In this document: positions 1 through 12,837 of the stretch, one piece after another
How positions within the stretch are numbered: the first letter of the stretch is position 1
Layout of the letters: each line of letters begins with the position of its first letter
Virus record (IMG/VR): IMGVR_UViG_2693429623_000016
Direction: 5' to 3' (one strand)
Source of the DNA: a virus
Taxonomy: Duplodnaviria > Heunggongvirae > Uroviricota > Caudoviricetes
DNA length: 13,020 nucleotides
Program-made: the position numbers and the translations under genes
Notes under the pieces: generated by a model
Database searches by the model: none
The model's input: only the letters and a program-made list of their open reading frames with translations
What the model was told of the DNA's origin: nothing

Positions 1-30
1 AAACACTATCAATAAGTTGGAGTCATTACC
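1..30 (+). mobile_element. IS1 terminal fragment (3' end including right inverted repeat); the IS1 body lies upstream of the window
   Basis: Bases 1-30 (aaacactatcaataagttggagtcattacc) match the canonical 3' terminus of IS1 (…AAAACACTATCAATAAGTTGGAGTCATTACC) as I recall it; same orientation as the window. Confidence 0.8.
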
Positions 31-162
31 AAACGGTTGAAATGTATGCCGCTACTTACGGGTCCTGTAATCCTCTGAATAAACCAGAGGGAAAAGATGA
101 TTTCGACAAAATTTACCGCTTCTTGGAGGACCGCTATATCAAAAGCTTAGAGGACGCAGGGA

Positions 163-540
163 TCAAATCCCCAGTGAAGTCACCATTGTCCTGAGAACTT
201 GCAGAACGTCATGATCATAACTTCCATCCAAACCGCGACGGCGAATTGCTTCTCGTATTACCGGAAGCAGTTCGCTGGAAATCTCGGTGCATATTTCACC
301 TGATAATACGCTTGGCTCAAGTGAGAATATTGGTGAACTTACGGTCTTGGTCTCGACAGTTTCAGAGTCAGTGCCAACATTATAAAGCTCAACGAAAGCG
401 GTCTTGATTTTCCGGGCCAGATCTTTTGCTGGCTCGCTTGCAATATCTTTCCCGATTTCTCGCAGCACAGAATGCAATGTATGAGCTGCTGTTTTCTGTA
501 CATCAGACGGTAAATCTTTAAATTCCATCGTCAGCCTCAT
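163..540 (-). CDS. hypothetical protein (125 aa), distal gene of leftward early operon
   Basis: Six-frame ORF; its ATG (538-540) overlaps the TGA of the upstream minus-strand ORF (ATGA coupling). No recognisable motif. An in-frame ATG four codons downstream (MEFKDLP) is an alternative start. Confidence 0.45.
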   Translation of the reverse strand: MRLTMEFKDLPSDVQKTAAHTLHSVLREIGKDIASEPAKDLARKIKTAFVELYNVGTDSETVETKTVSSPIFSLEPSVLSGEICTEISSELLPVIREAIRRRGLDGSYDHDVLQVLRTMVTSLGI

Positions 541-692
541 CAGTCAGTGTTTCTGGCTAACCAGCAACGCGCGCCAGATTCGGTTTTAAACGTTTTGCTT
601 TTGGTATACGTCATGGCGGTAAACGTTCCATCCTGGTTAGGGAACACGCCGCACACCAGAGATTCGTTGTTGCCAAGATCGATAGTATCCAT
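540..692 (-). CDS. hypothetical small protein (51 aa from the ATG at 690-692; ORF is open to an ATG at 746)
   Basis: Minus-strand ORF just downstream of the OL-like operators. The internal ATG at 692 is preceded by a GAGG Shine-Dalgarno-like motif, whereas the ATG at 746 has none. Function unknown. Confidence 0.4.
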   Translation of the reverse strand: MDTIDLGNNESLVCGVFPNQDGTFTAMTYTKSKTFKTESGARCWLARNTD

Positions 693-872
693 GCTGACCT
701 CATTTCCCCTTAACGCCGGGGTGGCGGAACAAAAAACCTGCTGCATAGTTAAAGATTGAACCCTGCCGTCATGTTCTTACGCCTCGGGCTGGCTACTTAA
801 CCCCTGACCACTGTCTGGTAACTCGAAGTATTGCCCTGCATTCTGTGGGGCGGGGTGGGTTGACGCCTGAAA

Positions 873-914
873 CAATAGCATCATTATTTTTTTGATGTAA
901 ATAGCATCGCTATT
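873..914. promoter_or_regulatory. OL-like operator pair with candidate leftward promoter (PL-like)
   Basis: Two 15-bp palindromes: AATAGCATCGCTATT (900-914, perfect arms AATAGC/GCTATT) and AATAGCATCATTATT (874-888). On the minus strand a TTTACA -35-like hexamer (revcomp of 895-900) and a TATTGT -10-like hexamer (revcomp of 873-878), 17 bp apart, overlap the operators. Confidence 0.5.
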
Positions 915-930
915 GTTTTTTGTTGGGGCA

Positions 931-954
931 AGAAAAAACCACCCTAAGGTGGTT
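931..954 (-). terminator. rho-independent terminator after the toxin gene (minus strand)
   Basis: Minus-strand RNA AACCACC-UUAG-GGUGGUU forms a 7-bp stem with a 4-nt loop, followed by a U-rich tract (UUUUUC). It lies 16 bp downstream of the toxin stop codon (971-973). Confidence 0.6.
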
Positions 955-970
955 CTGTCGGCGGGAATAA

Positions 971-1261
971 TTAACTGTTTTTGCCTGGATACTGTCTTCG
1001 AGAATGCACAATATTTACTACTTCTATGCTTGATGCTGTTACTCGGTAAAGGATGATGTAGTTAGGATGAGTTACAATTTCACGAAGACCAAGAACTCGC
1101 TCGCTTGGAGGATACAGGTAAGGATGCTCTGTGAGCGGCAAAACGGATGTTTCAATTCGAATTTTCATTCTGCGTGCTGCCGCGGGATTTTCTTTAGCTA
1201 TGTAGGCTACGATCTGGCGCAAATCATCACGAGCAGATGGTAGCCATAAAACGGGTAACAT
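971..1261 (-). CDS. ParE/RelE-superfamily type II toxin
   Basis: 96-aa ORF with the size and sequence character of ParE/RelE toxins (MLPVLWLPSARDDLRQIVAYI…IILYRV…EVVNIVHSRR). Its start overlaps the stop of the upstream small ORF, the classic antitoxin-toxin arrangement. Assigned from recalled family features, not a search. Confidence 0.7.
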   Translation of the reverse strand: MLPVLWLPSARDDLRQIVAYIAKENPAAARRMKIRIETSVLPLTEHPYLYPPSERVLGLREIVTHPNYIILYRVTASSIEVVNIVHSRRQYPGKNS

Positions 1262-1455
1262 TATTCACCTCTGTGAGTTGCAGCAGCAATTTGGGCAATA
1301 ATTTGTTCCATTTCCGCCATTACCTCATCATGCGGAATCGCCGGGCGGGGATCCGCGAGGCTTGCTGCTACTTTGGCCCGCAGCCATTCGTTGTAACTAT
1401 TTTCTTGCTCAACTGTCTCAAATTCTGAAACCATTGGGGAAAGGACTGTACTCAT
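1261..1455 (-). CDS. type II antitoxin (ParD-like, cognate of downstream ParE-like toxin)
   Basis: 64-aa acidic ORF immediately upstream of and overlapping the toxin gene. A C-terminal segment (EWLRAKVAASLADPRPAIPHDEVMAEMEQII) resembles ParD-type antitoxins. Starts 17 bp after the repressor stop, so probably co-transcribed with the repressor. Confidence 0.6.
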   Translation of the reverse strand: MSTVLSPMVSEFETVEQENSYNEWLRAKVAASLADPRPAIPHDEVMAEMEQIIAQIAAATHRGE

Positions 1456-1474
1456 TTTACATATCTCCTCTGAT

Positions 1475-1975
1475 TTAGGCGCGACGGCCTTTTTGTGCAG
1501 CTAACCACCGCGCAACCGTACGATCCATTGATTCTTTTTTATCTTTCATCTCCTGAAGCATGTGTTCTTGATCTTCTTTCGGAAAAGCTCTGAACGTATG
1601 GATTAAATCTCGTTCCATCGGCTCTACGGCAAACGGTAGTTCATCCTCTGTTTGTTCTGTGTCTGCTGGTAATGCGACTATGTTATCTTGCTGTGGTTCT
1701 CGACAATACATCCTTGCAATTTGCAGCAAATCTACCATGTCTGGCCTGATTGACTCAGGGGGAACTTTCAGTAAGCCAGCAAACTTTAGAACAGCCTCAA
1801 GGTTTAGTGGGGTTTGACCATTTAGGTAGTGACTTACCGCCCCTTGTGTTGAAAACCCCATAATTTCCGCCGCACGTTCCTGAGTCAATCCCAACTGAGA
1901 TTTCTTTGCCATCCAGATTTCTTTCAGTCTTCTGGCGGCGTTGAGGTCGGTGTCTGACAATGATTTTCTTTTCAT
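1475..1975 (-). CDS. prophage repressor, HTH XRE family (RacR/cI-type, no S24 peptidase domain)
   Basis: HTH_XRE-like segment (LTQERAAEIMGFSTQGAVSHYLNGQTPLNLEAVLKFAGL). Transcribed divergently from the Cro-like gene across an operator-containing intergenic region. The ORF is open to a GTG at 2005; the ATG at 1973-1975 was chosen as start. No LexA-like Ser/Lys protease motifs are visible in the C-terminus. Confidence 0.75.
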   Translation of the reverse strand: MKRKSLSDTDLNAARRLKEIWMAKKSQLGLTQERAAEIMGFSTQGAVSHYLNGQTPLNLEAVLKFAGLLKVPPESIRPDMVDLLQIARMYCREPQQDNIVALPADTEQTEDELPFAVEPMERDLIHTFRAFPKEDQEHMLQEMKDKKESMDRTVARWLAAQKGRRA

Positions 1976-2010
1976 ACATCCAATTCTAATAAGATTGCTA
2001 ATCACTTTGA

Positions 2011-2053
2011 AATAGCATCACTATTTACTTTTAAAAATAACAGTGCTATTAAT
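2011..2053. promoter_or_regulatory. OR-like operator pair with candidate rightward promoter (PR-like)
   Basis: Palindromes AATAGCATCACTATT (2011-2025) and AATAACAGTGCTATT (2036-2050) share the half-site with the OL-like sites. Candidate -35 TTTACT (2024-2029), 17-bp spacer, then extended -10 TGcTATTAA (2044-2052), upstream of the Cro-like ATG at 2087. Confidence 0.5.
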
Positions 2054-2086
2054 TATGCATTGGTAACACATCACATAGGGCGGATT

Positions 2087-2350
2087 ATGAATCTTGGAGA
2101 ATATTTGCATCATTTTCATATAACCCAGAGTTCATTTGCTGAGATTGTTGGCGCATCCCAAGGGATGGTCAGCCACGTTATAACGGGGCGTGCAAAACTT
2201 ACAGGAGAAAAAATATTACGTTGGTGTGAAGCAACGGGATGGGTGGTGACCCCACATGAGATTGACAGTAAAACCTACCCCAACCCAACTGACGGCTTGC
2301 CTGCTGAGTTTCAGGCTAACACACAACCATCGGCGGGGGTTGATTCATGA
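2087..2350 (+). CDS. Cro-like small HTH protein (YdaS-like)
   Basis: Small ORF divergent from the repressor, with an HTH-like segment (SQGMVSHVITGRAKLTGEKILRWCEATG). An AGGG motif precedes the ATG at 2087; the ORF is open to a TTG at 2060. Its stop overlaps the next gene's start (ATGA at 2347-2350). Confidence 0.65.
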   Translation: MNLGEYLHHFHITQSSFAEIVGASQGMVSHVITGRAKLTGEKILRWCEATGWVVTPHEIDSKTYPNPTDGLPAEFQANTQPSAGVDS

Positions 2351-2772
2351 AAATCAAGCATGAACACATCCGCATGGCGATGAAAGCCTGGGCGCATCCG
2401 GACGGTGAAAAAGTTCCGGCAGCTGAAATAACCAGGGTTTATTTCGAACTGGGAATGACGTTTCCGGTTCTGCATAACGACAGCAAGCACAACACGCTTT
2501 ATCTCAACACCCAAAAGATTTTCCGTTGGCTGGATAAAGACACCCCTGACGCTGTTGAAAAAATTCAGGCGTTGTTACCTGCGATCGAAAGGGCAATGCC
2601 ACCTCCGCTGGTGGCTCGAATGCGCAGCCACAGTTCAGCTTATTTTCGGGAACTGGTGGAGACGCATGAACGACTGGTGAGAGACGCTGATGATTTTGTC
2701 GCAGTGGCAATCGCCGGTTTCAATCAGATGAACCGTGGTGGCCCGGCAGGAAATGCTGTGGCAGTACATTGA
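2347..2772 (+). CDS. YdaT-like protein (occupies the cII position in Rac-type immunity regions)
   Basis: 141-aa ORF beginning MKIKHEHI and ending …AVAVH, which matches my recollection of Rac prophage YdaT termini. Translationally coupled to the Cro-like gene. Assignment rests on recall and synteny only. Confidence 0.55.
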   Translation: MKIKHEHIRMAMKAWAHPDGEKVPAAEITRVYFELGMTFPVLHNDSKHNTLYLNTQKIFRWLDKDTPDAVEKIQALLPAIERAMPPPLVARMRSHSSAYFRELVETHERLVRDADDFVAVAIAGFNQMNRGGPAGNAVAVH

Positions 2773-2843
2773 CTGACAATAGCCATATCGAATCGCTCCC
2801 GGCAACTCGTGAGTAAAAAGATTCGGTATCAGAAGAGGTGAGT

Positions 2844-3908
2844 ATGGCTAACGCCTGGCTCAGATTATGGCATGACATGCCAAATGACCCTAAGTGGCGA
2901 ACAATTGCCAGGGTGTCAGGGCAGCCAATTGCAACAGTGATGGCAGTGTATATCCACCTCCTGGTGAGCGCGTCACGAAATGTCACGCGAGGTCACATTG
3001 ATGTCACGACAGAAGATTTGGCAAGTGCGCTCGACGTGACAGAAGAGGTAATTGATTCAATTTTGCAGACGATGCAGGGGCGGGTACTTGATGGTGATTT
3101 AATCACTGGATGGGAAAAACGCCAGGTGCTTAAAGAGGACAACGGCAATATTTCGCAAACCGCAAAATCTCCTGCAGAGCGCAAGAGGGCGCAGCGAGAG
3201 AGGGAAAGAAAGCGGGAACAAAATGGCGATTGTCACGGCGCGTCACGAAATGTCACGCACATGTCACGACGAGTCACGACAGATACAGATAAAGATACAG
3301 ATAAAGAAGATCAAAACACTATGGTCCATGGCGTAAAAAACGCCACGAACCAGGCAGGGGATGTTCAGACCGTCAATCCTGGTCAGCCAGCAGGCTCGAC
3401 ACCGGAAGCCGATTCAGCGTATGCGCTGAAAGCCGATTCGGGCGCTGTGCAGCAGGTGATGACCGCAAGGCCGGAGCAATCACTCCAACTGCAGCAGCCT
3501 GAAGCCGATTCCGCCATTCAGCGGGAAGCCGATCGGGTAGCCCCGGAAAACACCGGGCAGCCTGTGGGACGAGTGGATTATCCGGATGTGTTCGAACAGG
3601 TCTGGCGGGAATACCCGTTGCGTGCCGGGGCAAACCCGAAGAAATCCGCATTCAGTGCCTGGAAGGCCAGATTGCGCGAGGGGGTGCCACCAGAGACCAT
3701 GCTGGATGGTGTGAGGCGTTACGCGAGATACCTGGCGGCGACCGGGAAAGCGGGAACGGAATTTGTTCAGCGAGCGACGACGTTTTTTGGGCCGGACCGG
3801 AATTTTGAAAACCCCTGGTTGCTCCCGGTAAGCGGCACGAACAACCAGCGTTGTGTGAATCATATTTCTGAACCGGATACCGAAATTCCGCCGGGATTCA
3901 GGGGGTGA
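2844..3908 (+). CDS. phage replication initiator (lambda O analogue; YdaU position) containing internal origin-like iterons
   Basis: Sits immediately upstream of a DnaC-like gene, with RBS AGAGGTGAG before the ATG at 2844 (ORF open to a GTG at 2838). The middle is low-complexity and acidic, and the coding DNA carries iterons. The C-terminus ends …IPPGFRG just before the DnaC-like start; the same junction recurs at 5836-5856. Confidence 0.7.
   Translation: MANAWLRLWHDMPNDPKWRTIARVSGQPIATVMAVYIHLLVSASRNVTRGHIDVTTEDLASALDVTEEVIDSILQTMQGRVLDGDLITGWEKRQVLKEDNGNISQTAKSPAERKRAQRERERKREQNGDCHGASRNVTHMSRRVTTDTDKDTDKEDQNTMVHGVKNATNQAGDVQTVNPGQPAGSTPEADSAYALKADSGAVQQVMTARPEQSLQLQQPEADSAIQREADRVAPENTGQPVGRVDYPDVFEQVWREYPLRAGANPKKSAFSAWKARLREGVPPETMLDGVRRYARYLAATGKAGTEFVQRATTFFGPDRNFENPWLLPVSGTNNQRCVNHISEPDTEIPPGFRG
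2972..3008 (+). repeat. iteron cluster 1: four direct GTCAC(G/A) repeats at 10-11 bp spacing
   Basis: GTCACG at 2972, 2982 and 3003, GTCACA at 2992; an inverted copy (GTGAC) lies at 3045-3049. Confidence 0.6.
3232..3278 (+). repeat. iteron cluster 2: five direct GTCACG repeats at 10-11 bp spacing, followed by an AT-rich tandem motif
   Basis: GTCACG at 3232, 3242, 3252, 3263 and 3273. Immediately downstream (3284-3307) is gatacagataaa repeated twice within an A/T-rich stretch. Confidence 0.6.
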
Positions 3909-3914
3909 TGTGGC

Positions 3915-4716
3915 ATGAAAANNNNNNNNNNNNNNNNNNNNNNNNNNNNNNNNNNNNNNNNNNNNNNNNNNNNNNNNNNNNNNNNNNNNNNNNNNNNNNN
4001 NNNNNNNNNNNNNNNNNNNNNNNNNNNNNNNNNNNNNNNNNNNNNNNNNNNNNNNNNNNNNNNNNNNNNNNNNNNNNNNNNNNNNNNNNNNNNNNNNNNN
4101 NNNNNNNNNNNNNNNNNNNNNNNNNNNNNNNNNNNNNNNNNNNNNNNNNNNNNNNNNNNNNNNNNNNNNNNNNNNNNNNNNNNNNNNNNNNNNNNNNNNN
4201 NNNNNNNNNNNNNNNNNNNNNNNNNNNNNNNNNNNNNNNNNNNNNNNNNNNNNNNNNNNNNNNNNNNNNNNNNNNNNNNNNNNNNNNNNNNNNNNNNNNN
4301 NNNNNNNNNNNNNNNNNNNNNNNNNNNNNNNNNNNNNNNNNNNNNNNNNNNNNNNNNNNNNNNNNNNNNNNNNNNNNNNNNNNNNNNNNNNNNNNNNNNN
4401 NNNNNACAGCTACGACAACGGCAAATCCGGTGAAAAATTTTTACAGGAGCTTTGCGGGGTTGATTTGCTGGTCCTGGATGAAATAGGCATTCAGCGGGAG
4501 ACGAAAAACGAGCAGGTGGTATTGCACCAGATAATTGATCGCCGGACAGCATCACTGTGCAGTGTCGGGATGTTAACAAACCTGAATCATGCCGCAATGA
4601 GCACGCTTCTTGGTGAGAGGATTATGGACCGCATGACCATGAACGGTTGTCGGTGGGTGACGTTTAACTGGGATAGCTGGCGTTCAAATGTCAGCTTTCC
4701 GGGAGTTGTGAAGTAA
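3915..4716 (+). CDS. DnaC-like helicase loader, copy A (interior hidden by N-run 3922-4405)
   Basis: ATG at 3915 follows the O-like stop. After the gap the reading frame gives SYDNGKSGEKFLQELCGVDLLVLDEIGIQRETKNEQVVLHQIIDRRTASL…, homologous to the C-terminal half of the intact DnaC-like gene at 5863-6609. Stop TAA at 4714-4716. Confidence 0.7.
3922..4405. other. run of 484 N (assembly gap or masked sequence)
   Basis: Directly visible in the sequence. Confidence 1.
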
Positions 4717-4737
4717 TTTTTGTTGGAGGATGTTTTA

Positions 4738-5463
4738 ATGGAAACTGTATTTGACGCACTGAAAGCACTGAAAAGAGCCTCTTCACATGTGGTGGCGTCC
4801 CGCCTTGGAATCAGCCGTGAAGATGCGGTCAACGAACTGTGGAAACTGAAGCGCCGTGGTGAAGCGGATAACAAGGGTTCGATGTGGTGGCTGATTCAGG
4901 CTGGTGAAAGTGAACCAGTGTCACCGGTACCGAAAGTGACAGCGCAAATGCTGACTGAGGCGATTGAACAACATGGCCCACAAACGGCGGATGAGCTGGC
5001 ACTGATGTTCGGGATTACCTCCCGCCGGGCGAATTCATCGCTGGCCATGGCAATCAGCAAAGGGCGTCTGATTCGCGTGAATCAGGGCGGTAAATTTCGG
5101 TACTGCATACCGGGCGCTGATTTACCGGCAGAGCCGAAAGCCGCATCCATAGCGGAAACGGATGGTAAAGTCTTTCCTCAGCCAGCAGGTGTTGCGTTAC
5201 CGGTACAGGAAGCTGCAACACAGGAAGAAATTAAAACAGAAACTGTGGCGGACATTGTGCAGTCGTTGCCATCGTTCACCGAAACGCAAGCGGATGACCT
5301 GGTTTTACCATCGCTGCATATGGCAAACCGCGAACTGCGTCGGGCGAAAAGTCATGTCCAGAAGTGGGAGCGTGTCTGCGCCGCGTTGCGGGAGCTGAAC
5401 AAGCACCGGGATATTGTTCGACAGATTGTCGATTCCTCCGGTCGTATTGTGTCGGAAAAGTGA
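4738..5463 (+). CDS. hypothetical phage protein (242 aa) with winged-helix-like segments
   Basis: ORF with RBS GGAGGA (4725-4730) seven nt before the ATG at 4738 (ORF open to a TTG at 4720). Segments such as [25 protein letters not shown] and [28 protein letters not shown] suggest wHTH folds. Follows DnaC-like copy A. Confidence 0.5.
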
Positions 5464-5478
5464 TTGCCGGGGGCGCTT

Positions 5479-5616
5479 ATGGCAAAAGTATTTACACAGG
5501 AAGAGCGGGAAAAAATTAAGGGGCAGGTTGTTGAACTCGTACGCCAGAGTGGGCGCGAGACGTTACGACAACTGGAAGCTAAAACCGGGGCGACAAGATA
5601 TTTAATAAGCGTTCTC
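5479..5616 (+). CDS. partial CDS: N-terminus of a small wHTH-like protein, diverged paralogue of the 6624 and 7274 genes, cut off by an N-run
   Basis: MAKVFTQEEREKIKGQVVELVRQSGRETLRQLEAKTGATRY aligns with MAKPFTPEQREELKTRIVELVHQDGRVTIRQLSDETGISRA at 6624 and 7274. Ends at N-run 5617-5625. Confidence 0.4.
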
Positions 5617-5625
5617 NNNNNNNNN

Positions 5626-5856
5626 CAGGCATTGCGAAAACCGATTCGAACGGAGCAGGGCGCTAACGGGGCGATACGGGAACTGGAAAAATTCCGTCAG
5701 CAGGGTTTTACACCTGAGCAGGTGATTCGACACAGCATCGCCAATGAATACCAGGGTCTGTTCGCGCCGAAAGGTGTTCGGCCTGAGACGTTGCTCCGAC
5801 AGGTTAACACCGTCTCGTTGCCGGACAGTGCGATCCCGCCAGGCTTCAGGGGGTAA
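5626..5856 (+). CDS. partial CDS: C-terminus of a second O-type replication initiator, resuming after an N-run
   Basis: Ends …AIPPGFRG-stop at 5854-5856, then a DnaC-like ATG at 5863. This mirrors the 3'-end of the O-like gene and its junction with DnaC copy A at 3880-3917. The upstream part of this gene is absent. Confidence 0.45.
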   Translation, partial: QALRKPIRTEQGANGAIRELEKFRQQGFTPEQVIRHSIANEYQGLFAPKGVRPETLLRQVNTVSLPDSAIPPGFRG

Positions 5857-5862
5857 CAGACC

Positions 5863-6609
5863 ATGAAAAATATTGCGACAGGAGGCGTTCTGGAGCGTAT
5901 CCGCAGACTGACCCCACCACATGTAACCGCCCCATTCAGAACGGTTGCGGAGTGGCGCGAGTGGCAACTTGCTGAAGGCCAGAAACGTTGCGAGGAGATC
6001 AACCGCCTGAATCGTCAGTTGCGGGTGGAAAAAATCCTGAACCGCTCCGGCATCCAGCCGTTGCACCGGAAGTGTTCGTTTGCGAATTACCGGGCGCAGA
6101 ACGACGGTCAGCGACATGCACTGAGTCAGGCGAAATCCATAGCTGACGAACTGATGACAGGCTGTACGAATTTTGTGTTCAGCGGTAAGCCCGGCACCGG
6201 AAAAAATCATCTTGCAGACGCGATTGGCAACCGGCTGATGGCGAAGGGGCGTAGCGTGATTATCGTCACCGTGTCCGATGTCATGAGCGTGTTGCATGAG
6301 AGCTACGACAACGGCAAATCCGGTGAAAAATTTTTACAGGAGCTTTGTGGTGTTGACCTGCTGGTCCTGGATGAAATTGGCATGCAGCGGGATACGAAAA
6401 ACGAGCAGGTGGTACTGAACCAGATTGTTGATCGCCGGACGGCATCGTTACGCGGTGTGGGGATGCTGACAAATATTAACCATGCAGCGATGAATACACT
6501 TCTCGGCGAGCGGGTGATGGATCGCATGGTCATGAACGGCGGGCGCTGGGTGAATTTTAACTGGGAGAGCTGGCGTCCGAATGTTAGCCATTCGAGGGTT
6601 GTTAAGTAG
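5863..6609 (+). CDS. DnaC-like replicative helicase loader (AAA+; IstB/DnaC family), copy B, intact
   Basis: 248 aa with Walker A FSGKPGTGKNHLA and Walker B DLLVLDEIG. Collinear similarity to E. coli DnaC as I recall it (…NRSGIQPLHRKCSFANYR…LGERVMDRM…). Confidence 0.9.
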   Translation: MKNIATGGVLERIRRLTPPHVTAPFRTVAEWREWQLAEGQKRCEEINRLNRQLRVEKILNRSGIQPLHRKCSFANYRAQNDGQRHALSQAKSIADELMTGCTNFVFSGKPGTGKNHLADAIGNRLMAKGRSVIIVTVSDVMSVLHESYDNGKSGEKFLQELCGVDLLVLDEIGMQRDTKNEQVVLNQIVDRRTASLRGVGMLTNINHAAMNTLLGERVMDRMVMNGGRWVNFNWESWRPNVSHSRVVK

Positions 6610-6623
6610 TTTCAGGAGGATTT

Positions 6624-6808
6624 ATGGCGAAACCTTTTACTCCCGAACAGCGGGAAGAACTGAAGACGCGAATTGTGGAACTCGTGCATCAGGACGGTCG
6701 GGTCACGATTCGGCAGTTGTCAGATGAAACAGGTATCAGTCGTGCGTCTGTCGGTCGCTTATGCATGGAACTGGTCGCAAGTGGTGATGTATATAATTCT
6801 GGCTACGG
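6624..6808 (+). CDS. partial CDS: N-terminus of the small wHTH-like phage protein (copy B), cut off by N-run 6809-6819
   Basis: RBS AGGAGGA five nt before the ATG at 6624. Sequence is nearly identical to 7274-7458. Confidence 0.5.
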
Positions 6809-6819
6809 NNNNNNNNNNN

Positions 6820-7259
6820 TTGATGAAATTGGCATTCAGCGCGAGACGAAAAACGAGCAGGTGGTGCTGCACCAGATTGTTGATCGCCGGACAGCGTCGA
6901 TGCGCAGCGTGGGGATGCTGACAAACCTGAACTATGAGGTGATGAAAACANNNNNNNNNNNNNNNNNNNNNNNNNNNNNNNNNNNNNNNNNNNNNNNNNN
7001 NNNNNNNNNNNNNNNNNNNGATGAAATTGGCATTCAGCGCGAGACGAAAAACGAGCAGGTGGTACTGAACCAGATTGTTGATCGCCGGACGGCATCGTTA
7101 CGCGGTGTGGGGATGCTGACAAATATTAACCATGCAGCGATGAATACACTTCTCGGCGAGCGGGTGATGGATCGCATGGTCATGAACGGCGGGCGCTGGG
7201 TGAATTTTAACTGGGAGAGCTGGCGTCCGAATGTTAGCCATTCGAGGGTTGTTAAGTAG
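6820..7259 (+). pseudogene. DnaC-like C-terminal gene fragments (two partial copies flanking N-run 6951-7019)
   Basis: 6820-6950 encodes DEIGIQRETKNEQVVLHQIVDRRTASMRSVGMLTNLNYEVMKT, a variant of the DnaC core. 7020-7259 is near-identical to 6362-6609, the 3' end of DnaC-like copy B. Neither fragment has a 5' part. Confidence 0.5.
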
Positions 7260-7273
7260 TTTCAGGAGGATTT

Positions 7274-7643
7274 ATGGCGAAACCTTTTACTCCCGAACAG
7301 CGGGAAGAACTGAAGACGCGAATTGTGGAACTCGTGCATCAGGACGGTCGGGTCACGATTCGGCAGTTGTCAGATGAAACAGGTATCAGTCGTGCGTCTG
7401 TCGGTCGCTTATGCATAGAACTGGTCGCAAGTGGTGATGTATATAATTCTGGCTACGGGGTATTTCCCTCTGAACAGGCTCATAAAGACTGGCAAAACGC
7501 CCGCAAAAAGCTATCGAGGGTAAAGGTGAAGAAACCGGTTGTGGTTGATCCTGACCTTATCTGGTCATTACCAGACGGAGAAATACGCCGCTACGACAGG
7601 CGCCTGAATATAATCTGTCGCGAGTGCCGGAAGAGCGAAGCTA
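7274..7643 (+). pseudogene. small wHTH-like phage gene (copy B') truncated at its 3' end by the IS element
   Basis: Homology to the copy at 8915-9157 is lost after about position 7645, exactly where the IS terminal sequence (TGAGGT…) begins. The ORF then runs into the IS and ends at 7690. Confidence 0.6.
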
Positions 7644-7686
7644 TGAGGTGTACTGGCAATAGCGGACACTACCATTTGTTCTTTTT

Positions 7687-8592
7687 TTAAGCAGCCATCT
7701 GATGATATTTTTCCCTGAAGGCTGCCGGGGAGATATTCCCCAGACGAGAGTGACGACGCTGACGATTGTAGAAAATCTCAATGTATTCCCGTATTACTGA
7801 GATGGCTTCATCCCGGTTATTAAAACGATAGTGGCTCAGGCTCTCATTTTTCAGCGTTCCCCAGAAGCTTTCCATCGGAGCGTTGTCGTAACAGTTACCT
7901 TTACGCGACATTGATGTTTTCAGACCAGACTGCTCCTGTATGACCCGGTAATCGTATGCGCAGTACTGTGAACCTCGATCAGAGTGGTGGATTAGCCCGG
8001 CAGGTGGGCGCTGGCTCCTGAGCGCCATAAACAGGGCTTTACCTGTCAGCTCTTTTGTCATGCGCTCTCCCATGGCGTAGCCGACAATTTCGCACGTATA
8101 AACATCTTTGATGCCAGCGAGGTACAACCATCCCTCCTGTGTGGCAACATACGTCAGGTCCGCCACCCAGACCTGATTTGGTGCTGTAGGAGCGAACGTC
8201 TGGTTCAGCAGATTTGGCGCAACTGGCAGATTGTGGTTCGAGTTCGTAGTCGCTCTGAACTTGCGTTTCTGCTTACAGCGTAGCCTTAGCTCCTTACGAA
8301 GACGTGCCAGTCGGTCACGACCAACGATGATGCCATTCTCTGCCAGCTCCGTCTGGAGCCGCCGGGTTCCATATGTTTCGCGAGTGCGGATATGTGCCAC
8401 CTTAATCTCCAGTTTTAGCCGCTCATCACTTTGTTTTCTGTCTGAGGGTTCATGCTGTACCCAGTTGTAATAACCGCTCCTGGATACACCAAATACCTGA
8501 CACATCGCTTCAATGGGAAATTGTTGTCGCCATTGTTCGATTAACGCGTATTTTTCAGCGACTCCTGTGCAAAATACGCTGTTGCTTTTTTT
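7687..8592 (-). CDS. IS3-family transposase OrfB (DDE/rve integrase core), expressed as an OrfAB fusion by -1 frameshift
   Basis: DDE integrase-like sequence (…WVADLTYV…HHSDRGSQY…NAPMESFW…). The orfB frame is -1 relative to orfA. Slippery heptamer A_AAA_AAA at 8586-8592 (minus strand) lies within the orfA codons tta-aaa-aaa-gca. Confidence 0.85.
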   Translation of the reverse strand, partial: KKSNSVFCTGVAEKYALIEQWRQQFPIEAMCQVFGVSRSGYYNWVQHEPSDRKQSDERLKLEIKVAHIRTRETYGTRRLQTELAENGIIVGRDRLARLRKELRLRCKQKRKFRATTNSNHNLPVAPNLLNQTFAPTAPNQVWVADLTYVATQEGWLYLAGIKDVYTCEIVGYAMGERMTKELTGKALFMALRSQRPPAGLIHHSDRGSQYCAYDYRVIQEQSGLKTSMSRKGNCYDNAPMESFWGTLKNESLSHYRFNNRDEAISVIREYIEIFYNRQRRHSRLGNISPAAFREKYHQMAA

Positions 8593-8843
8593 AATATATC
8601 TCGCTCAAGGCGAGCTTCATTTAACGCCTTACGCAGTTGCAGAATTTCAGATTCCAGTTCAGCCACCGTGCGGGAACCAGGAGTACCGAGCCCTTTTCTG
8701 GCGGCGGTAACCCATTGTCCTAAAGTGCCTTCAGGAAGAGATAATCGGGAAGCGCCTTCACTGATCGAAAGTTGATTTTCAAGAACCGTTCTGACAGCTT
8801 CGGCTTTGAACTCTTTAGAGTAACGTTGGGTTTTTCTGCTCAT
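8541..8843 (-). CDS. IS3-family transposase OrfA (HTH DNA-binding and leucine-zipper part)
   Basis: 100-aa ORF MSRKTQRYSKEFKAEAVRTV…LERDILKKATAYFAQES, typical of IS3-family OrfA. Recalled as IS600-like. Confidence 0.85.
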   Translation of the reverse strand: MSRKTQRYSKEFKAEAVRTVLENQLSISEGASRLSLPEGTLGQWVTAARKGLGTPGSRTVAELESEILQLRKALNEARLERDILKKATAYFAQESLKNTR

Positions 8844-9785: not shown

Positions 9786-11758
9786 ATGGCCCGCATGTTT
9801 GATACATTAGGATTTTACATTATGAATGTGCAACATTTTGATTTTTTTACAGATAATGAGTTTTCTAATCTGGAAAGATATCAAACTTGTAAAGCCATGG
9901 CCAAAGGTTATGCGGGCAATTACAAAACCGGGCAGTCAAGGTTGATGCATGCCCGCTCATACTGCTTCAGCATCGTAGCTGCATATTGGGATACCCTTGC
10001 AAAAAAGCAAAAAAGCAGCATTAAAATGAGGGCAGTACCGCACACTGTTTACATAGAAGACATTCCATGTGATGCACGCGAGCTCGCTGAACGAACAGGT
10101 GAGCTTATTGCTCAATTTCCGGCGGAGGACGCTGGATATCTGATTGGGTCAATTTATACGGTAATGCTGCCATCCGCTTACCGTTCGGAATTGGGGGCTT
10201 ACTATACCCCCCCACCTTTGGTAGCGCGTCTCTTGGACCTGGCTGAAAAGTCTGGTGTTGATTTTTCTCATGCATCGGTTATTGATCCTGCGTGTGGTGG
10301 CGGTGCATTTTTGGCACCAGTAGCCATTCGAATGTTAAAAAAAGACAAGGGGTCTTCCCCTGAATGGATGTTGAGGAGAATCAGTCGTCGTTTAAAGGGG
10401 ATAGAAATCGATCCATTTGCGGCTTGGATGAGTTTGGTATTGCTCGAATCTGTACTAATGCCACTATGTGTAAAGGTAAAACGTAGATTGCCTGAAGATA
10501 CAATTATTGTTGCTGATGCGCTTCAGCAAGATAAATTTTCTGGTTATGATCTTGTGGTAGGGAATCCGCCTTACGGACGTGTCACTCTCGATATTAAAAC
10601 GAGAGAAAAATATTCTCGTTCGTTATTTGGTCATGCAAATCTATATGGATTGTTCACCGACTTAGCTGTTCGCATGGTTAAANNNNNNNNNNNNNNNNNN
10701 NNNNNNNNNNNNNNNNNNNNNNNNNNNNNNNNNNNNNNNNNNNNNNNNNNNNNNNNNNNNNNNNNNNNNNNNNNNNNNNNNNNNNNNNNNNNNNNNNNNN
10801 NNNNNNNNNNNNNNNNNNNNNNNNNNNNNNNNNNNNNNNNNNNNNNNNNNNNNNNNNNNNNNNNNNNNNNNNNNNNNNNNNNNNNNNNNNNNNNNNNNNN
10901 NNNNNNNNNNNNNNNNNNNNNNNNNNNNNNNNNNNNNNNNNNNNNNNNNNNNNNNNNNNNNNNNNNNNNNNNNNNNNNNNNNNNNNNNNNNNNNNNNNNN
11001 NNNNNNNNNNNNNNNNNNNNNNNNNNNNNNNNNNNNNNNNNNNNNNNNNNNNNNNNNNNNNNNNNNNNNNNNNNNNNNNNNNNNNNNNNNNNNNNNNNNN
11101 NNNNNNNNNNNNNNNNNNNNNNNNNNNNNNNNNNNNNNCCTGTTTTCTTAATGTATTAAAACAGATGTCTACGCGTTTAGCTGATCTGGGATACTCAGTC
11201 TCTACAGGTCAGTTAGTCTGGAATCGATTTAAGTCGCAGTTGCGTACGACGAAAGGAAAAAATAGCTACCCATTAGTCTGGGCGGAATCAATAACTTCAG
11301 CTGGTTTTCGTTTTAGTGCAGACAGAAAAAATCATGTTCCCTATATCGATATAACCCCACAACAGGGTTTCCTTGTGACAAAATCTGAATGTGTGCTTGT
11401 TCAGCGGACAACATCGAAGGAACAGGACAGAAGGATTTTAGCGGCAATTTTACCTCAGGGATTTATAGATGAAACTGGTGGCGTAGTAGTTGAAAACCAT
11501 ATTAATATTGTATATTCAAACGGATTGTTCTCTGCGGTTCGCCCTGATGTTATTGATATGCTACTTAATTCGCATGTTGTCGATCGGGCGTTCAGGTGTA
11601 TAAGCGGAAGTGTTGCTGTTTCGGCCTATGAATTGAATTCAATCCCGTTGCCTTCTCTGGAGCAGGTGATGGAGATTCAATCGTTAATTGATGCTGGCGT
11701 CCACAGACGGATTATTGAGAGAACTATCGCTGGTTTCTATGGAGTGATGATTGCATGA
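9786..11758 (+). CDS. N6-adenine DNA methyltransferase, gamma class (Eco57I/TaqI-like catalytic domain plus C-terminal target-recognition domain); middle hidden by N-run 10683-11138
   Basis: Motif X-like GAYYTPPPLVARLL, motif I DPACGGGAFL and motif IV VVGNPPYG occur in that order. After the N-run the frame is open back to the gap and encodes a TRD-like region (LADLGYSVSTGQLVWNR … AYELNSIPLP). The two halves are in different frames relative to the N count, so gene continuity is inferred rather than seen. Confidence 0.75.
10683..11138. other. run of 456 N inside the methyltransferase gene (assembly gap or masked)
   Basis: Directly visible in the sequence. Confidence 1.
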
Positions 11759-12837
11759 ATCTGCCTGTTGTTCCCCCATTGAATGTTATCCGGGAAAGAT
11801 TACAATTAATTTTCCCTGAAGGGACTGAGAATCGTGGATATTTAATTCGGGAAATAGCTGCAAAAACAATTTTTGTCATGTTTTATGCTGGTGCGGTTGA
11901 GGGGCTGGGGCGATGGATAAGGCCCAGCCAGGTTGTAAGTATGGGAGATTCGCAGGCTGCTCTTACTGATGATGCGTCCAGAGAAAGCTGGGTAAAGATG
12001 ACTTTCTCTAAACAAAAGATAAGGCCTGCTGATGCATGGTATGCGGAAAATACGCGTGAGCCAATACGTGATGAAACTATAAAAAATGGCCTAATACCTT
12101 GCAATGCAATTGTTGAGCGTAAAGGTATACCCACCACATCCTCTCGTCCTCGTTACAGTTTGAATCGCTCTTTTGCAGCACTCTTTGATGCCGGGCTTGA
12201 AGGAGATTCGCTGCTGAGTGCAATAAGTTCCTGGCAAGAAAATCATTTGAACAAAGCCGCTCTTGCTAGGTTGCGTTTATTGAAATCAGGGGCAGTGATT
12301 GCTGCTGATGCCGTAGTCGTCACTTTCCCAAATGGAGAGAAGAGAACTTTAGCTCCGGGCCCGTCAAGTACAATAGCTAAGGCCGTCATCGAAGTTTTTG
12401 CTCCTAATTTTCTTAAGAATCCAACTGTGCTCTGGTTGTCTGAATCCGGGAATAAAGTTGTTGCTCAGGATGATGTATTGGCAAAAGCATTGGGGCTGAA
12501 TATTGATGCCTCAAAAGCACTTCCAGATATTATTTTGATTGATTTGGGAGAGGACCGAACGGGTTCGGACATGCTTGTAGTTTTCACTGAAGTAGTTGCG
12601 ACAGATGGGCCTATAAACAGGGAACGAAAAGTTACTCTCACTCATTTGGCTATTGACGCTGGGTTCAGCGAGAAAAATCTTGCATTCCTTACGGCATTTA
12701 TGGACAGAAGTGCTCTGCCTTTTAAAAAGGCAATACCAGAATTGGCGTGGGGATCTTATGCATGGTTTGCTTCTGAACCGGAGCACTTAATTGATCTTCG
12801 GGATGGTTATCCGGTAAAGATCAGCCAGAGAAAATGA
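11755..12837 (+). CDS. putative Type II restriction endonuclease (BsuBI/PstI-like?), partner of the methyltransferase
   Basis: 360-aa ORF whose ATG overlaps the methyltransferase stop (ATGA at 11755-11758). N-terminal segment IFPEG…AAKTIFVMFYAGAV…AENTREPIRDE resembles what I recall of BsuBI/PstI-family nucleases, which typically pair with Eco57I-type methyltransferases. No canonical PD-(D/E)xK motif was confidently identified. Confidence 0.5.
   Translation: MNLPVVPPLNVIRERLQLIFPEGTENRGYLIREIAAKTIFVMFYAGAVEGLGRWIRPSQVVSMGDSQAALTDDASRESWVKMTFSKQKIRPADAWYAENTREPIRDETIKNGLIPCNAIVERKGIPTTSSRPRYSLNRSFAALFDAGLEGDSLLSAISSWQENHLNKAALARLRLLKSGAVIAADAVVVTFPNGEKRTLAPGPSSTIAKAVIEVFAPNFLKNPTVLWLSESGNKVVAQDDVLAKALGLNIDASKALPDIILIDLGEDRTGSDMLVVFTEVVATDGPINRERKVTLTHLAIDAGFSEKNLAFLTAFMDRSALPFKKAIPELAWGSYAWFASEPEHLIDLRDGYPVKISQRK

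Follow-up and report, generated by a model that had tools for sequence, protein, structure and literature searches.

In lambda, the slot between the repressor gene and OL/PL is occupied by rexA-rexB, an exclusion system that depolarises the membrane. What, then, is the identity and the role of a toxin-antitoxin (TA) pair that lies in the corresponding slot (positions 971-1455, minus strand) of a 13,020-nucleotide stretch of DNA from a tailed virus (IMG/VR record IMGVR_UViG_2693429623_000016, Caudoviricetes), hereafter referred to in its full length as the window? A preliminary description, prepared from the sequence alone, regarded the genes as a ParE/ParD-like pair, presented them as a fresh idea and suggested either exclusion or prophage stabilisation as their role. 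The pair in fact belongs to a characterised system (Hallez 2010; Jurenas 2021). [quoted passage not shown] The value of the results described below lies mainly in correct annotation, by which the locus is tied to the experimentally studied paaR-paaA-parE system.

The toxin and the antitoxin

The parE-family toxin gene (971..1261, minus strand, 96 aa), delineated from the list of open reading frames and from family matches, encodes a protein that is matched along its full length by the Pfam family ParE_toxin (PF05016, E 1.8e-17). The crystallised ParE2 of E. coli O157 (PDB 5cw7_B) matches it with an E value of 6.7e-37 and 67% identity over 93 residues, and because this is identity to a crystal structure, we take the RelE/ParE fold of the toxin as settled. 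Together with the 83% identity to the PaaR1-type paralogue of the EDL933 stock, these matches identify a ParE-family toxin closely related to ParE1 and ParE2, and the toxin family named in the preliminary description was borne out by the profile search.

Immediately upstream, the paaA-family antitoxin gene (1261..1455, minus strand, 64 aa) ends in a stop codon that overlaps the ATG of the toxin by one base (TAATG). Both family and structure matches define it: PF21217 (PaaA2; E 3e-23, Pfam), NF050103 (E 3.3e-27, NCBIfam) and the PaaA2 structures 3zbe and 5cw7 (E 1.4e-23). No RHH, ParD or other DNA-binding domain was found in the antitoxin at E<=0.01 in the Pfam and NCBIfam scans, and the earlier label "ParD-like" was wrong at the family level. 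That the two genes constitute a type II TA pair, as had been claimed, is nonetheless well founded, in that both ORFs match curated families far beyond chance.

Classical parDE modules (those of RK2 and parDE2 of Vibrio cholerae) likewise combine the ParE fold with an antitoxin that wraps the toxin. However, ParD, according to an excerpt of PMC10776004, possesses an N-terminal ribbon-helix-helix domain and autoregulates its own operon, while PaaA lacks this domain and the regulation passes to a separate repressor. Since a PaaA-type antitoxin is devoid of a DNA-binding domain, the repressor encoded upstream would act as the regulator, which makes the locus a three-component paaR-paaA-parE module.

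In comparisons with homologues, the dN/dS ratio ranges from 0.06 to 0.13 for the toxin and from 0.05 to 0.16 for the antitoxin, with dS saturated in both cases. Judged from these ratios (0.05-0.16), both TA genes are under strong purifying selection.

The repressor and the divergent genes

The gene in the CI position, encoding a PaaR-type repressor, extends over 1475..1975 on the minus strand (166 aa from the RefSeq ATG at 1975). The protein contains an HTH_3 domain (E 9e-9, Pfam) and its N-terminal domain resembles that of lambda CI (PDB 1lmb, E 2.5e-9), while the C-terminal ~50 aa align with the C-termini of PaaR1, PaaR2 and DicA, as revealed by a DicA C-terminal match and the alignment. The S24 peptidase domain is absent from the repressor according to the Pfam scan. 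The combination of a lambda CI-like N-terminal domain with a PaaR/DicA C-terminal domain is ordinary lambdoid mosaicism and the only local twist of this locus.

Between the repressor and the antitoxin there are 19 nt (1456..1474, minus strand, read from the sequence), in which a Shine-Dalgarno element GAGGAG (1465-1470) precedes the antitoxin ATG by 9 nt. The statement that the pair lies directly downstream of the repressor and on the same strand was correct, although the gap had been given as 17 nt. The TA genes are thus preceded by a co-oriented regulator with a PaaR/DicA C-terminal domain and an N-terminal DNA-binding domain of the lambda CI-like type.

On the plus strand, divergently from the repressor, there is a gene for a Cro-like HTH protein in the YdaS position (2087..2350, 87 aa; HTH_3, with the start and layout as in RefSeq), followed by the gene for the CII analogue YdaT (2347..2772, 141 aa, PF06254), whose product is 77-87% identical to the homologues compared. 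The junction of ydaS and ydaT contains the YdaT operator OM (2340..2357), an exact match to the published motif TTGATTN6AATCAA, which occurs once in the window against 0.06 occurrences expected. In CP-933P, as stated in an excerpt of PMC9986795, this operator marks a PRE-type alternative start of the repressor-TA operon.

Homologues of the gene at 2347-2772 are called "toxin YdaT family protein" in RefSeq and YdaT_toxin in Pfam. Experiments on CP-933P identified YdaT as a CII-like transcription factor and no toxin (PMC8630535; PMC9986795), and the "toxin" label is an annotation trap for TA-finding pipelines.

Promoters, operators and terminator

A consensus scan and inspection of the sequence point to a PRM-like promoter (TTCAAA-17-TAGAAT) at 1983..2011 on the minus strand. 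Its -10 element TAGAAT and the downstream ATG of the repressor are 7 nt apart, and a leaderless repressor mRNA is therefore predicted; at the level of consensus matches, both the promoter and the leaderless start are putative. For paaR2 of CP-933P, the leaderless mRNA has been demonstrated experimentally (PMC8630535).

Two 15-bp palindromes between the repressor and the cro-like gene (2011..2025 and 2036..2050) constitute OR-like operators, and another two (874..888 and 900..914) constitute OL-like operators overlapping a PL-like promoter (901..872, minus strand, from the consensus scan) that is directed into ydfA. Copies of the palindrome AATAGCNNNGCTATT start at 874, 900, 2011 and 2036; five occurrences were counted in the window, compared with 0.45 expected, and none of 200 shuffled sequences reached five. 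The recurrence of the same palindrome at OR confirms the OL-like operators of the preliminary description. Across other loci, the sequence of OL/PL varies with the type of the repressor and the flanks are conserved.

The unit formed by the repressor, antitoxin and toxin genes ends at an intrinsic terminator at ~929..956 (minus strand), a hairpin AGAACCACC-UUAG-GGUGGUUUU followed by a U-tract, which begins 15 nt past the toxin stop codon and folds with -17.2 kcal/mol (z -2.4). A simple consensus scan for terminators missed this hairpin, probably because the stem runs into the T-run, and folding was needed to confirm it. In the PaaR1-type loci a hairpin is present at the equivalent place with a different stem sequence, which argues for a functional terminator. 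A rho-independent terminator ahead of the OL-like operators had been postulated, and the fold supports it. The layout of the genes is that of one predicted transcription unit, shared by the pair with a CI-like repressor and ending before OL/PL.

We also considered whether the TA genes might have a promoter of their own at a promoter-like site within the repressor gene (1888..1860, minus strand), and set this candidate aside as a bare consensus match, with 4 such sites observed against 3.1 expected. The Rfam scan of the whole window returned no match, so that neither an RNA antitoxin nor a riboswitch is indicated. The GC content of the cassette (0.43-0.48) is close to that of the flanks (0.44-0.50), and the composition profile reveals no GC anomaly and no compositional evidence of recent foreign origin.

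Relationship to known systems and mosaicism of the immunity region

A characterised relative of the locus, paaR2-paaA2-parE2, is an operon in the immunity region of the cryptic CP-933P prophage (PMC8630535; PMC4803016; partly after Hallez et al. 2010), where, as stated in PMC9986795, paaA2-parE2 takes the place of rexA-rexB. The rexAB-equivalent position proposed for the pair in the window has therefore been stated in the literature for its homologue. PaaR2 is a functional analogue of CI; its mRNA is translated without a leader, and the sites it binds are OR-like and OL-like operators, while YdaS and YdaT are the analogues of Cro and CII, respectively (PMC8630535). In the window, too, the pair belongs to a lambdoid immunity region, with the ydaS-ydaT genes in divergent orientation on one side and OL/PL beyond the toxin on the other, and the order repressor, paaA, parE, OL/PL and ydfA, with divergent ydaS-ydaT, was found in every related locus examined.

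The CP-933P/Sp12 locus of O157:H7 (Hallez 2010; Sterckx 2016; Jurenas 2021) is represented in our data set by a locus (L004) in which the toxin is identical residue for residue to ParE2 of the PDB and the regulator begins with MQKKE, the published N-terminus of PaaR2. It shares with the window the gene order, the strand logic, the rexAB-replacing immunity position, the C-terminal domain of the repressor, the divergent ydaS-ydaT genes with an identical YdaT operator motif, and OL/PL past the TA pair; its toxin and antitoxin are each 67% identical to those of the window. On the other hand, the repressor of the window has 166 aa compared to 123 aa in PaaR2, the two are only 28-33% identical depending on the alignment, and the lambda CI-like N-terminal domain is unlike that of PaaR2. 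The operators differ as well (AATAGCNNNGCTATT in the window versus the published GTTTAGTAA-type repeats in CP-933P), and the Cro-like protein is only 30% identical to its CP-933P counterpart.

Among characterised pairs, the second paralogue in the EDL933 stock (L003) has the toxin and antitoxin nearest to those of the window (83% and 78% identical, respectively); we assign this locus to the paaR1 type, as the one in that genome that is not of the PaaR2 type. The DNA homology between L003 and the window is unbroken over positions 549-1602, which include ydfA, parE, paaA and the final ~43 codons of the repressor gene. Across 1603-2275, a segment that covers the N-terminal domain of the repressor, OR and the N-terminal part of the Cro-like protein, the homology is lost; it resumes within the cro-like gene, at its 3' end, and in ydaT, and OL also differs between the two loci. 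These comparisons show that the TA cassette and the C-terminal domain of the repressor form a conserved block, against which the immunity-specific module has been swapped. At least three immunity specificities have been recombined onto this block, and the swapped immunity modules provide natural material to test the published idea of immunity-region protection.

The far edge of the slot is marked by ydfA (DUF1391; 540..692, minus strand; PF07151, E 3e-28), the first gene downstream of PL. The dicA-ydfABC-dicB region of the Qin prophage of K-12 has in common with the window the family of the repressor C-terminal domain and the downstream ydfA operon, with ydfA 90% identical at the DNA level. 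However, in Qin the slot is empty: dicA and ydfA are direct neighbours, and the TA pair is missing between them. Beyond ydfA, the window contains an ORF of 125 aa (163-540, minus strand) that has no match in Pfam or NCBIfam; an ORF of 121-125 aa is found at the equivalent place in the sister loci L008-L015.

In E. coli 2013C-4974 (L006, positions 2932-3795), two repressor-like genes occur in tandem upstream of paaA-parE, one of the PaaR2-like type (123 aa) and one of the PaaR1-like type (153 aa), the latter with its 3' end overlapping the start of the antitoxin. This arrangement resembles a scar left by recombination of one immunity type with another.

Lambda cI-rexA-rexB exhibits the same position and logic, with the pair placed downstream of the repressor, expressed from PRM/PRE in lysogens and terminated before OL/PL. 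Searches of Pfam, NCBIfam and PADLOC reveal no sequence relationship between RexA/RexB and the pair in the window, and the equivalence is positional only. Pairs with toxins from the ParE superfamily are also carried by other prophages, namely ParE(SO)/CopA(SO) by CP4So of Shewanella and PfiT/PfiA by Pf4. The former is reported to stabilise its prophage and the latter to affect phage production and prophage induction; these pairs are set apart from the one studied here by other antitoxin families and other types of prophages.

Distribution

DNA related to the cassette is present in 842 of 5426 complete E. coli genomes, with an identity of at least 99% in only two of them. The immunity type of the window is carried by 72 E. 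coli genomes, and likewise 72 cover the whole span from the repressor to the TA pair. The exact toxin protein was found in 6211 blocks of public assemblies, including more than 100 contigs over 1 Mb; the eight of these long contigs that were examined have 4.8-5.0 Mb, and IS1 is present in five of them.

Positions 1-3921 of the window are 100% identical to one of these long contigs, the 5.03-Mb chromosome CP032523.1 (L009). The similarity ends abruptly after position 3921, just past an O-like replication gene; in CP032523.1 the DnaC-like gene comes directly next, and in the window the two are separated by ~1.9 kb, including a DUF1627 gene (4720-5463). Comparison of the two sequences suggests that this difference is a mosaic joint or an insertion.

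In the phage collection, only Escherichia phage Evi (LR597642.1, L024) carries a close homologue, in the same position. Its ParE2-like toxin gene (2501-2776) is unannotated, although the upstream regulator and antitoxin are annotated.

The scan of species-representative genomes returned eight loci, none of them enterobacterial, and says little on the spread of the module among enterobacteria. Outside this group, PaaA-ParE pairs with 58-73% toxin identity (L016-L021) were found in Paracoccus, Acetobacter, Komagataeibacter, Pseudomonas and MAGs. Those of Paracoccus, Acetobacter and Komagataeibacter are located on small plasmid-like contigs beside Rep-like genes, and that of Pseudomonas in a 91.6-kb scaffold. 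A CI-like repressor was found upstream of PaaA-ParE in none of these non-enterobacterial loci, and for this reason the two-gene cassette is more widely mobile than the name "three-component" suggests.

Proposed mechanism and alternative explanations

We propose the following mechanism, built on the gene identities, layout, operators, terminator, mosaic structure and purifying selection observed in the window. In the lysogen, the gene of the CI-like repressor would be transcribed leftwards from the PRM-like promoter, probably as a leaderless mRNA, and the transcription would run on through paaA and parE as far as the hairpin at 929-956, stopping short of OL/PL. A start of the PRE type at the ydaS/ydaT junction, dependent on the CII-like YdaT, could also feed the repressor-paaA-parE unit. 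PaaA, a small and largely disordered protein devoid of a DNA-binding domain, would wrap and neutralise ParE, and control of transcription would be left to the repressor and the Cro-like protein. By homology, PaaA is expected to be unstable, as a substrate of ClpXP/ClpAP, and ParE to be stable; ParE would therefore be freed when the cell loses the locus or stops expressing it. Free ParE would then act on the nucleoid, leading to SOS induction or growth arrest, with death or arrest of the cell as the outcome. The overall result would be addiction, by which the prophage and its immunity region are stabilised.

The functional steps of this scheme, i.e. toxicity, cognate neutralisation, co-transcription, instability of the antitoxin and post-segregational killing, are transferred from paralogues that are 67-83% identical. 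The homologous toxins are toxic, are neutralised by their own antitoxins, and are co-transcribed with the repressor (PMC8630535; PMC4803016); PaaA2 is a substrate for degradation by both ClpAP and ClpXP and is devoid of a DNA-binding domain (PMC8630535). Neither PaaA1 nor PaaA2 neutralises the toxin of the other pair (PMC4803016), and we assume that the PaaA-ParE pair of the window is cognate and specific. The homologous locus stabilises plasmids, including mini-F, via post-segregational killing (PMC8630535), in agreement with the prophage stabilisation that was suggested in the preliminary description. Addiction is thus the best-supported reading of the available data.

It is tempting to consider a role of PaaA-ParE beyond plain addiction, although we regard it as rather unlikely. 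The pair could either bring about rex-like abortive infection when a superinfecting phage interrupts transcription from PRM or the supply of PaaA, or act as a guard that kills heteroimmune recombinants in which the immunity region has been replaced. The argument in favour of such roles is that the pair is located outside the immunity-specific segment and yet is transcribed from it. The guard corresponds to the proposal of Jurenas et al. that the TA pair stabilises the immunity region of the prophage against rearrangement (PMC8630535).

Abortive infection or superinfection exclusion in the manner of Rex, taken by itself, seems to us improbable. According to this scenario, which could coexist with addiction, a superinfecting phage would shut off transcription of the host or the prophage or speed up the turnover of PaaA, and the released ParE would kill the infected cell before the phage cycle is complete. 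The pair does occupy the lambda rexAB slot between the repressor and OL/PL, and it is co-oriented with the repressor expressed in the lysogen; moreover, phage defence is a known function of other type II TA systems. However, the toxin, the antitoxin and the repressor each match none of the families of PADLOC-DB v2, so that assignment to a known defence system was dropped, and Pfam and NCBIfam reveal no relatedness to RexA or RexB. Exclusion, abortive infection and superinfection go unmentioned in the main paper on the homologue, and of 48 papers since 2022 that mention PaaA2, none of the 40 titles listed refers to anti-phage activity of the module. The exclusion role raised as one option in the preliminary description thus found no support: no phage-exclusion function of paaR-paaA-parE was reported in the literature searched, and its homologues, unlike RexAB, have been shown only to be addictive.

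To return to addiction by a ParE-type toxin and its molecular target, ParE2 induces SOS. Poisoning of gyrase has been shown for the ParE toxins of RK2 and Vibrio, whereas ParE2 reportedly neither binds GyrA59 nor inhibits gyrase. This absence of gyrase inhibition in vitro might be taken to mean that the toxin is a ribosome-dependent mRNA interferase of the RelE type rather than a ParE-type protein acting on DNA or topoisomerases. The generic RefSeq labels (RelE/ParE toxin and RelB antitoxin), the breadth of PF05016, which spans the whole RelE/ParE superfamily, and the NCBIfam assignment to RelE_StbE, marginal at 29.3 bits against a cut-off of 27.9, point in the same direction. We consider this very unlikely, as the five best matches among solved structures (5cw7, 5czf, 6x0a, 5ceg and 3kxe) are all ParE or plasmid stabilisation chains and the sole RelE/StbE chain has an E value of 0.3; furthermore, ParE2, to which the toxin is 67% identical, was seen to colocalise with the nucleoid and to trigger SOS (PMC8630535).

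Least probable of all is that the pair is a decaying, non-functional remnant in a cryptic prophage, as might be thought from the IS insertions in the surrounding prophage (IS3 family at 7687-8843; IS1 in sister loci) and from the lack of detectable ParE2 activity in either steady transcriptional state of CP-933P (PMC8630535), since both ORFs are intact and of full length with respect to the family models, the translational coupling through TAATG has been kept, dN/dS is as low as 0.05-0.16 with dS saturated, and an identical toxin protein recurs in the 6211 assembly blocks mentioned above.

Other features of the window

The prophage early region contains a restriction-modification cluster (9786-12837, plus strand). 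An N6-adenine methyltransferase with PF02384 and Eco57I-type domains (9786-11159) is followed by a 197-aa ORF that matches no family (11165-11758), and the third member is a restriction endonuclease of the BsuBI/PstI family (11755-12837; PF06616 and PF17728); all three are encoded on the plus strand. Upstream of this cluster there is an IS3-family transposase (7687-8843, minus strand) with rve domains, which corresponds to IS600 in the annotations of related E. coli genomes. It is adjoined by three DUF977 genes or fragments on the plus strand (5464-5856, 6624-7259 and 7274-7690), and the DnaC-like gene lies at 5863-6609; the DUF977 copies suggest a duplication or disruption downstream of the DnaC-like gene.
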